64,000 bases of DNA. Source: Bacillota bacterium. GTDB lineage: Bacteria; Bacillota; Clostridia; TANB77; CAG-465. Below are positions 12,146 to 13,915 of this stretch, in pieces (position 1 is the first letter of the stretch; each line of letters starts with the position of its first letter). The notes under the pieces are model-generated. The model was not told the origin of the DNA. It did not search any database and was given only the letters and a program-made list of their open reading frames with translations. Made by a program: the position numbers and the translations under genes. The stretch covers positions 3,168-67,167 of the forward strand of contig JAEYPQ010000023.1 of NCBI GenBank assembly GCA_023410645.1, read 5' to 3'.

Positions 12146-13915
12146 ATGAAAAGTACATTATTGATATTAGTAATATCTTTATTTACAGTTATATTTGTCA
12201 TAGATGGCATACATAGGAAAAAAAGAAAAAACGATCTAGATAAGCAGTTTATACTTTTAAATGTTACTTTAATTATAGATTTAATAGGTTTAATATTACA
12301 AATACTTTTTAAAAATACCAATATACATCCAGTATACTTTGATTATATAACATATATTGGTGGAGTATTTATACCTGTTATATTTATGAATATATCTTTA
12401 TTATATCTTAATCCTGATAAATTTAAAAATAAATTAAAATATTTATTTATTATACCAACAATAAGTTTACTTGGACTTTTTACTAATGATATACATCACT
12501 TGTTTTATAAAGTTTATTCAGTTAATATGACTGATACAGTTGTTGGACCTTTATTTTATATGTATTCATTATATTCATATACTTTAATATTTTTGGCTAT
12601 TGTTATATTAATAGTAACATCTATGAAAAAGTCTGGTTTTTTCTCAATCCAGACAGCACTTATGATATTTGGTGGTTTAGCTCCCGTTTTAATTAATATA
12701 CTTGGAACCTTAAGAATAATTCCTATGACAATTTATGTTACACCAATTATGTTTATTGTCACATCAATATGCTATTCTTTAGCAATTTTTAGGTATAAAG
12801 CTTTAAATATAACACCTATTGCATTTAAAACAATAATAGATACCATGTCAGATGCTTATGTAGTAATATCTAATGATGGGACAATAGCAGATTGTAATAA
12901 AACTTTTAGAAATAAATTTAATGAAGTTTTAAAGATTACAAATGATGATAATTTATTTTCAACTTTATATAATGATAAATTAATAAATGTATCTGAATTG
13001 AAAGCTGATATAGAAAAAACTAGAACTGAAAGTATAATTATAACTAAGGAATATCATATTGTAACTAATAATTTCAATAGATATTTTGAGGTTGATATTC
13101 ATCCAATAGGAACAGCTGAAAAATCAAACGAATATGTTGGTACACTTTTATTGTTTAAAGATATAACTCAGCATAAAGAAGATATACAATCAATTCAAGA
13201 AAAACAGGATATAATTATAAAGCAAGAGCAACTTGTTTCAATCGGTGAACTTGCTGGTGGGGTTGCACATGATATAAACACTCCTATATCTGCAATAAAA
13301 ACTGGAATATTAATGCTAAATGAGATGAGCGGTGAAAGAACTGAAAGTGAAAAAAATATTTTGCAAAGAATGGATAATTGTGCAACTAAGATAATTAATA
13401 TAGTTAATAGTATGAGAAATCAAATTAGAAATCTTGGTGGAGATACTAATGTTGAATTTAAAATTAGTAATGTTGTAAATGATATTAAGATAATTACTTA
13501 TCATGAAGTATTTAAAAACAAATCAGAGGTTATAATAGACATTCAAGAAGATGTTTCAATTACTGGTGATCCGACAAAATTAGGACAGGTATTAACAAAT
13601 CTTGTTGTAAATGCTGCTCAAGCCTATGATGAAAAAGGTGGAAAAATTGAAATTATCGTATCTAATGAAGACAATATGGCATTAATTGAAGTAAACGATT
13701 ATGCTGGGGGTATTGATGAGAATATAATGCCATATGTATTCAAGAATATACTTACTACTAAAGGAACAAACGGAACAGGACTTGGACTTTATCTAGCATA
13801 TTCTGTTATAAAGGGTAATTTTAATGGTGAGTTATCGTTCGATACTAAAAAAGGTGTGGGAACAACATTTAAAATAAAGATTCCTATGACACAAAATTTT
13901 GAAAATAAACAGTAA
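12146..13915 (+). CDS. Orphan sensor histidine kinase with about 7 N-terminal TM helices, a PAS-like region, HisKA (H-box HDINTP) and an HATPase_c domain. No response regulator is encoded nearby.
   Basis: The H-box reads ELAGGVAHDINTPISAIK. The N and G boxes read NLVVNA and GTGLGL. The N-terminal half is hydrophobic. The gene starts 4 nt after the NRPS stop. Confidence 0.8.
   Translation: MKSTLLILVISLFTVIFVIDGIHRKKRKNDLDKQFILLNVTLIIDLIGLILQILFKNTNIHPVYFDYITYIGGVFIPVIFMNISLLYLNPDKFKNKLKYLFIIPTISLLGLFTNDIHHLFYKVYSVNMTDTVVGPLFYMYSLYSYTLIFLAIVILIVTSMKKSGFFSIQTALMIFGGLAPVLINILGTLRIIPMTIYVTPIMFIVTSICYSLAIFRYKALNITPIAFKTIIDTMSDAYVVISNDGTIADCNKTFRNKFNEVLKITNDDNLFSTLYNDKLINVSELKADIEKTRTESIIITKEYHIVTNNFNRYFEVDIHPIGTAEKSNEYVGTLLLFKDITQHKEDIQSIQEKQDIIIKQEQLVSIGELAGGVAHDINTPISAIKTGILMLNEMSGERTESEKNILQRMDNCATKIINIVNSMRNQIRNLGGDTNVEFKISNVVNDIKIITYHEVFKNKSEVIIDIQEDVSITGDPTKLGQVLTNLVVNAAQAYDEKGGKIEIIVSNEDNMALIEVNDYAGGIDENIMPYVFKNILTTKGTNGTGLGLYLAYSVIKGNFNGELSFDTKKGVGTTFKIKIPMTQNFENKQ

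Follow-up and report, generated by a model that had tools for sequence, protein, structure and literature searches.

A conserved operon-like pair of a reductase-terminated peptide synthetase and an orphan 7TM-PAS histidine kinase in Clostridia

The locus analysed here lies in a 64 kb stretch of DNA from a Bacillota bacterium of the class Clostridia (contig JAEYPQ010000023.1; “the window” hereafter), in which a gene for a sensor histidine kinase directly follows a gene for a non-ribosomal peptide synthetase (NRPS). An original prediction, made from the sequence alone, had described the two genes as co-transcribed, the kinase as an orphan that might sense the NRPS product, and Spo0A as its direct target. 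The features of the locus are collected in Table 1.

For the 589 amino acids (aa) encoded by the kinase gene, Pfam, an AlphaFold model and Foldseek agree on the 7TM-PAS histidine kinase that had been predicted. The HisKA_7TM match (residues 5–224, covering profile positions 3–224 of 224) scores 129 bits against a cutoff of 28.6, and the model, built from 50 orthologues with a mean pLDDT of 74.5, contains seven transmembrane helices (residues 2–23, 30–54, 63–88, 96–112, 135–163, 168–188 and 198–216). With a score above the gathering threshold and seven modelled helices, the protein belongs to the HisKA_7TM family (PF16927). The model continues with a PAS fold (237–339), two DHp helices (341–393 and 400–428) and an alpha/beta catalytic ATP-binding (CA) domain; Pfam places HisKA at residues 367–424 and HATPase_c at 474–582, and a PAS_9 match at 236–342 stays below its cutoff (19.6 versus 27 bits), PAS_9 being recorded for many orthologues. 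The best fold matches in the PDB are PAS-histidine kinases (YF1, SB2F1, VicK and ThkA). The H-box histidine in a two-helix DHp domain and the N, G1, F and G2 boxes make the protein a class I (HisKA-type) kinase. His375, N485/N489, D518/G522 (G1), F532 and G543/G545/G547 (G2) are invariant across the 50 orthologues, from which it follows that the protein has been selected as an active kinase or phosphatase.

The NRPS stop codon TAA ends at 12141 and the kinase ATG begins at 12146, which leaves a gap of 4 nucleotides (nt), as had been claimed. The claim that no terminator intervenes also held, as a scan of the + strand from 4726 to 13915 found no terminator-like site. The shared terminator placed at 13921–13953 stood in part: the hairpin is real and spans 13919–13955 (−16.3 kcal/mol, z = −5.4; 0 of 200 shuffles fold as well), overlapping the final codons of the convergent nth gene (13939..14631, − strand), but it is not a textbook terminator because the + strand U tract begins 6 nt past the stem. 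It is likely a bidirectional terminator, and a strong hairpin with a U tract lies at the same place 3′ of the kinase in six relatives. The terminator scan missed this AT-rich hairpin because it demands three G-C pairs; folding recovered it. At the other end of the operon, the 116-nt stretch that holds the hairpin at 4573–4616 does not, folded as a whole, differ significantly from shuffles (z −1.8). The hairpins before the NRPS and after the kinase bracket the two genes as a unit, and together with the tight junction and its internal ribosome-binding site, both conserved in relatives, they make the predicted co-transcription as a two-gene operon well supported at the sequence level. The promoter-like site 5′ of the NRPS is weak evidence because such matches occur at chance level in this DNA of 25% GC (121 found versus 119 expected in shuffled sequence). 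As to riboswitch control, for instance by cyclic di-GMP (c-di-GMP), Rfam finds nothing 5′ of the NRPS, either at the gathering threshold or at E ≤ 1.

Table 1. Features of the NRPS–kinase locus in window coordinates
Feature	Position	Strand	Basis
3′ terminator-like hairpin of the ferredoxin-like gene with a run of seven T; 5′ boundary of the operon	4573..4616	+	stem AGAAGAATATAT/ATATATTCTT, then TTTTTTT
Promoter-like site, TTGATT-17 nt-TATACT with TG extension, 49 nt 5′ of the NRPS start	4649..4677	+	promoter scan
NRPS, 2471 aa, C-A-T-C-A-T-R with terminal thioester reductase	4726..12141	+	Pfam, translation motifs
Ribosome-binding site of the kinase, GGAGG, within the last NRPS codons	12133..12137	+	sequence
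Orphan sensor histidine kinase, 589 aa, ATG start	12146..13915	+	open reading frame call, Pfam, AlphaFold model
Seven-helix membrane sensor domain HisKA_7TM, residues 1–216, without sizeable extracellular loop	12146..12793	+	Pfam PF16927, E = 3e-37
Cytoplasmic PAS domain, residues 226–345	12821..13180	+	PAS fold in model, Foldseek, orthologue annotation
DHp (HisKA) domain, “HDINTP” type; phospho-acceptor His375, codon 13268–13270	13181..13453	+	Pfam, alignment
Catalytic ATP-binding HATPase_c domain	13454..13891	+	Pfam, model
16-bp hairpin between convergent kinase and nth	13919..13955	.	folding; overlaps nth stop codon

Pfam assigns two Condensation, two AMP-binding and two PP-binding domains to the NRPS, followed by NAD_binding_4 at residues 2095–2346, and GxxGxxG and YxxxK motifs are seen in the translation. 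Judged by domain order, it fits the peptide-aldehyde family of gut Clostridia, whose synthetases are small and reductase-terminated (C-A-T-C-A-T-R or A-T-C-A-T-R). An enzyme with a starter C domain, two modules and a terminal reductase should, by the domain logic of NRPSs and by analogy to this published family, make an N-acylated dipeptide aldehyde or a close derivative.

All open reading frames (ORFs) of at least 60 aa in the window, which extends from 12 kb before to 50 kb behind the kinase, were screened with four receiver-domain queries and, by tblastn and phmmer, with a regulator of the REC-HD-GYP type from a related locus (L008). None contains a receiver domain, an HD-GYP domain or a second kinase. 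Within these 64 kb the kinase is a genuine orphan, and the earlier, correct statement that no response regulator lies within 10 kb can be widened to the whole window. The surroundings are housekeeping genes (nrdDGR, nth, pyk, spoIVA, alr, dnaE, plsX, comEC, era, recO, glmU and others), among which spoIVA (18282–19763) shows that the host encodes SpoIVA.

The strongest conclusion of the analysis is that the NRPS and the kinase are a conserved functional unit. Of 874 proteins related to the kinase at E ≤ 1e-10, the best 120 are 56–100% identical to it. A reductase-ending NRPS lies immediately 5′ of the kinase in all 14 species-representative genomes that encode a relative (kinase identity 34–77%), and further look-ups of kinase contexts found the NRPS directly 5′ in every case, the distance being −17 to +17 nt in most relatives. 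Among 23 tabulated loci, in which the window is counted twice, the junction measures −11 to +17 nt in 19, and a ribosome-binding site lies no more than about 20 nt 5′ of the kinase start in 22, at tight junctions inside the 3′ end of the NRPS gene; in four loci (L032, L034, L035 and L036) the kinase start overlaps the NRPS stop. When 16 loci were clustered all against all, only the NRPS and the kinase proved universal. The genes nth, pyk and spoIVA are common only to the nearest relatives, so that spoIVA lies nearby by mere synteny (nth-rpmB-pyk-spoIVA). Upstream of the NRPS, the ferredoxin-like and Crp/Fnr genes were considered as conserved partners and rejected, being common only to the closest relative (L006).

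The pair is kept in differing surroundings: beside nth-pyk-spoIVA, beside hisS, and convergent or divergent to a regulator gene. The linkage is not due to chance, as it holds over kinase identities of 34–100% and persists through rearrangement of the chromosome. Adjacent and co-inherited genes for a synthase and a receptor kinase are one mark of autoinducer cassettes, and the NRPS and kinase genes are adjacent and co-inherited in this way. Adjacency without function, the kinase being a passenger that stays beside the NRPS by descent, is very improbable and we disfavour it: related uncultured low-GC Clostridia supply many of the loci, so that the counts are not independent, yet the pair persists over the full range of kinase identity, its junctions overlap or are tight with an internal ribosome-binding site, and it outlasts relocation (nth and hisS sites), inversion, sensor swap and module change while the other neighbours all change.

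A few loci deviate. In one locus (L086) the kinase–regulator pair lacks an NRPS; a relaxase and two serine recombinases are found in its place (810–5509), the synthetase having apparently been displaced by a mobile element. The L029 kinase (7586–9348) is broken into two ORFs, and that of L002 (5661–7440) lacks the N-terminal 70 residues and follows a 227-nt gap; these defects are either sequencing frameshifts or cases of occasional kinase decay. In two loci (L011 and L012), a further NRPS of this family, without a kinase of its own, is encoded on the other strand immediately 5′ of the cassette.

The kinases fall into two clades with different transmitters. The H-box reads HDINTP in the clade of the window and HNLKTP in a sister clade with about 35% kinase identity. 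In the sister clade, the gene behind that of the kinase encodes about 350 aa with Response_reg and HD_5/HD domains, that is, a REC-HD-GYP regulator (L008, 11903–12964), and the order in the regulator contexts is NRPS–kinase–regulator. The phospho-acceptor aspartate D63, the HD dyad and the HHExxDGxGYP motif are invariant, by which the regulator would be of the c-di-GMP phosphodiesterase type. A metagenome scan with the regulator gave at least 454 matches, of which the best 80 loci (regulator identity at least 75%) were evaluated. An HNLKTP-type kinase is adjacent to the regulator or no more than 4.8 kb away in 61 of these 80, and in 45 of the 61 the cassette is complete, with the NRPS visible directly 5′ of the kinase; the other 19 hold no kinase, their flanking DNA being too short to judge. 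None of the 80 combines the regulator with an HDINTP-type kinase, and in none with enough flank does the regulator stand apart from an HNLKTP-type kinase. The idea that the REC-HD-GYP gene persists alone in genomes of the orphan clade was rejected, as in the 21 loci where it seemed to be solo the NRPS–kinase pair lies 4–5 kb away or inverted, or the contig ends. The original prediction had named, as a finding that would speak against it, a cognate regulator at another site that forms a conserved pair with the kinase; for the window clade no such pair emerged, the regulator keeping to its own cassettes wherever the flanks sufficed. The DHp domain of this clade is also remodelled.

The regulator is conserved far above the kinase before it: 118 of the best 120 clusters (P0122–P0240) are at least 80% identical, as against about 50% for the kinase within the clade. 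Cognate pairs do not usually differ in this way. In one sub-lineage (L043, L045, L047, L048, L053 and L055–L057), about five mostly opposite-strand genes (some 4.1–4.8 kb) split the kinase from the regulator, and both are retained. The NRPS–kinase pair is inverted relative to the regulator in five further loci, convergently in three (L098, L114 and L115) and divergently in two (L112 and L113), where the three genes stay neighbours without a common transcript. In L031 (7766–9877) the H-box segment of the kinase is directly duplicated, SILMEQERLASLGQLIGGIAHNLK occurring twice, which is probably an assembly artefact.

Identities per domain were taken from one alignment of kinases of both clades. 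The DHp domain is 0.66 identical within the window clade and 0.75 within the sister clade, and 0.20 between the two. The corresponding values are 0.49, 0.50 and 0.38 for the 7TM domain, 0.48, 0.43 and 0.28 for the PAS domain, and 0.58, 0.65 and 0.37 for the CA domain. Inside either clade, no domain is hence better conserved than the DHp, and across the two none is conserved less; in the paired sister clade the DHp carries insertions of 10 and 7 aa. Because the DHp carries partner specificity in two-component systems, this pattern implies a partner switch, by which the window clade would have changed its phospho-acceptor relative to the sister clade.

The new acceptor might be a dedicated cognate regulator elsewhere in the genome, either a DNA-binding protein acting back on the NRPS promoter or a REC-HD-GYP protein that has diverged, the locus then being one half of an ordinary split two-component system. 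Kinases of this lineage can have a partner of their own, as the sister clade demonstrates, only 64 kb of the genome are visible, and one locus with an HDINTP-like kinase (L035) has a gene for a stand-alone, single-domain receiver 8 kb downstream. We nevertheless regard a split system as unlikely, given that at least 10 HDINTP-type loci contain no receiver within 10 kb, that the sister-clade regulator was never met apart from its kinase in the scan described above, and that the DHp differs so sharply between the clades. The L035 cassette itself (3469–10004) consists of a phosphopantetheinyl transferase, a C-A-T-R NRPS, a lone A domain (546 aa), a lone carrier (73 aa) and the kinase.

A search with the DHp alone against 1.84 billion representatives, with the matches dissected by domain, turned up the HDINTP-type DHp in two more settings. 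In the first, it is present on kinases of 640–680 aa with a second, unrelated sensor, composed of several transmembrane helices, a loop of about 110 aa and another transmembrane helix, with HAMP in some members. Three of these (P0243, P0245 and P0407) are 59–65% identical to the window kinase over DHp and CA only, and their genes overlap the 3′ end of single-module C-A-T-R NRPSs (1412–1442 aa) at the same chromosomal site, nrdDGR...nth-rpmB-pyk-spoIVA, without a regulator. The second sensor is also fused to the sister-clade transmitter together with the regulator (L031 and 14 complete metagenome cassettes), so that all four combinations of sensor and transmitter exist. It was seen only with single-module NRPSs, the 7TM-PAS sensor mostly with two-module NRPSs. 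The originally proposed sensing of the product gains circumstantial support from this, the second sensor on the HDINTP-type transmitter occurring only with single-module NRPSs at the same chromosomal site. In the second setting, an HDINTP-like DHp is found on tandem orphan 7TM kinases that have neither an NRPS nor a regulator within 10 kb; in L117/L118 (10001–13556), two such HisKA_7TM kinases stand in tandem, 17 nt apart.

Spo0A as the direct target is not supported in the form in which it had been put forward; the sister-clade kinase is paired with the REC-HD-GYP regulator instead. For the window clade, Spo0A is plausible as the leading single acceptor candidate, and a reasonable one because the host sporulates, the HDINTP-type transmitter is orphan in all loci examined and the architecture is that of sporulation orphan kinases. 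Taken further, the kinase might be one of the host's orphan Spo0A kinases that senses a cue unrelated to the NRPS, with a single promoter serving both the metabolite and a sporulation or stationary-phase input. The absence of a regulator from the 64 kb, the spore-forming host with its spoIVA gene, the 7TM-PAS-HisKA-HATPase architecture shared with CAC0323, CAC0903, CPR1316 and CPR1954 (PMC11210211), and the HDINTP-type transmitter on tandem orphan 7TM kinases, which recall the overlapping cpr1953/cpr1954, all fit such a role. We consider it rather unlikely, as the match to the characterised Spo0A kinases is one of architecture alone, the output of the sister clade is c-di-GMP and not Spo0A, the proximity of spoIVA is synteny that is absent in other clades, and a cue unrelated to the NRPS leaves unexplained why the kinase never leaves the NRPS across deep divergence.

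We tentatively prefer to read the locus as a produce-and-sense operon, to which we give somewhat less than an even chance: NRPS and kinase would be made together, and the signal would be handed to an unlinked acceptor. For input, the kinase has the seven-helix membrane domain and the cytoplasmic PAS domain only. Through these it would monitor the operon's own lipophilic product, or the effect of the product on the membrane, with autophosphorylation on His375 as the response. In the sister clade the phosphate would pass to the adjacent REC-HD-GYP c-di-GMP phosphodiesterase. The window clade would have lost this regulator, and it carries an HDINTP-type DHp of the kind also present on other orphan kinases of uncultured Clostridia; with the regulator gone and the DHp changed, the phosphate should go to an acceptor encoded elsewhere.

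In a bolder version, the N-acyl peptide aldehyde made by the NRPS would be a self-made signal that the kinase reads, and the locus would be an NRPS autoinducer circuit with c-di-GMP output in one clade, rewired to a global acceptor such as Spo0A in the window clade. The “host protease inhibitors” would then primarily be bacterial signals. We hold this version to be doubtful, if clearly possible.

Several points weigh against a produce-and-sense operon. Product sensing is, we infer, the most economical mechanism, and it is arrived at purely by such reasoning. A strict tracking of NRPS module number by sensor type is weakened by three loci in which the 7TM-PAS sensor accompanies a single-module C-A-T-R NRPS (L002 and L004) or a C-A-T-C-T-R NRPS (L022). 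The co-variation of sensor and NRPS could also reflect linkage alone because the sensor-coding 5′ part of the kinase gene borders directly on the NRPS, and recombination that replaced the two as a block would produce this pattern with no relation to the ligand. Relatedness among the loci, many from uncultured low-GC Clostridia, keeps their counts from being independent. An internal kinase promoter is possible, the promoter scan being uninformative at 25% GC, and the acceptor question is judged from 64 kb of the host genome. Among the families of NCBIfam, the window kinase reaches no curated one (KinD scores 69 bits against a cutoff of 775), and sequence comparison to solved kinases fails to separate the two transmitter types, KinB, ZraS and ThkA being about equally close to both.

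Other features of the window touch neither gene. Between nth and rpmB, six loci (L001, L025, L026, L032, L034 and L036) have an ORF of 50–63 aa without a Pfam match; its position in the window, at about 14708–14860 (+), is extrapolated from L001. Larger ORFs without a Pfam match lie at 17055–18065 (−, 336 aa, also without an NCBIfam match), 40429–42048 (+, 539 aa) and 47739–49457 (−, 572 aa). A CRISPR array with 36 identical 30-nt repeats (Rfam CRISPR-DR3) occupies 53917–56242 on the − strand and is adjoined by cas genes at 56810–63929 (+), comprising Cas7, a Cas3-like helicase, Cas4 and unassigned ORFs, with a type I-like appearance.

Few biosynthetic genes of the human microbiome are as widespread as those for the reductase-terminated NRPSs of gut Clostridia. 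The products are mainly known to inhibit host proteases, and their role for the producer is an open question. Dipeptide-aldehyde/pyrazinone NRPS clusters of gut Clostridia are reportedly the subject of Guo et al. in Cell in 2017, and ruminopeptin is said to be that of Schneider and Balskus in 2018. Both are cited in a further article (PMC12327764), and both reportedly treat the products as host-protease inhibitors. The window locus resembles the dipeptide-aldehyde clusters in its small reductase-ending NRPS and its origin from gut-associated Clostridia, the comparison being one of domain order only, and loci of the window type are, by their contig names, common in human gut metagenomes. The literature covered, to which the primary text of Guo et al. 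did not belong so that a prior mention is possible, yielded no report that associates a kinase or HD-GYP regulator with NRPSs of this family. A native role in signalling is suggested by the dedicated kinase, which accompanies the synthetase in all related loci that allowed a judgement except the one that a mobile element has disrupted. If the product is indeed a self-made signal, an unrecognised NRPS autoinducer circuit would be widespread in human and animal gut Clostridia, and if the orphan version feeds Spo0A, this would be a rare clostridial sporulation kinase with a nameable candidate ligand. The natural combinations of sensors and transmitters offer a way to dissect ligand and partner specificity separately.

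In Vibrio CqsA–CqsS, Legionella LqsA–LqsS and staphylococcal agrBDCA, the gene of a signal synthase lies beside that of a polytopic kinase without a large extracellular domain, and in cassettes of this type a lipophilic ligand is sensed in the membrane. The present cassettes likewise join a synthase gene to a polytopic kinase, and in the sister clade also to a regulator. They differ in that the synthase is a reductase-terminated NRPS and the ligand putative, that the window cassette has no regulator, and that the output predicted for the sister clade is c-di-GMP hydrolysis and not transcription. In the RpfC/RpfG system, a sensor kinase controls an HD-GYP response regulator upon a diffusible signal. 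The sister clade resembles it, having a kinase and a REC-HD-GYP protein with intact catalytic motifs beside the synthase gene for a predicted diffusible metabolite, whereas the window locus lacks the regulator, has a DHp of the other type (about 20% identical to that of the paired clade) and a kinase that is not a hybrid.

Among clostridial kinases, several orphans of sporulation that have been studied by experiment (CAC0323, CAC0903, CPR1316 and CPR1954) share the 7TM-PAS-HisKA-HATPase architecture, and the activating signals of clostridial sporulation kinases remain unidentified according to a review (PMC11210211). Like CAC0323/CAC0903 of C. acetobutylicum, CPR1316/CPR1954 of C. perfringens and Cbei_0807/0808 of C. 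beijerinckii, the window kinase is an orphan of the same architecture and similar size in spore-forming Clostridia (PMC11210211). Unlike these kinases, with which it was compared by architecture only and none of which is so reported, it stands beside an NRPS, and unlike Spo0A-directed kinases it has a sister clade partnered by a REC-HD-GYP regulator. Set against these systems, the parts are of known kinds; the conserved cassette, its modular sensor and transmitter variants and the regulator-less derivative appear to be new.

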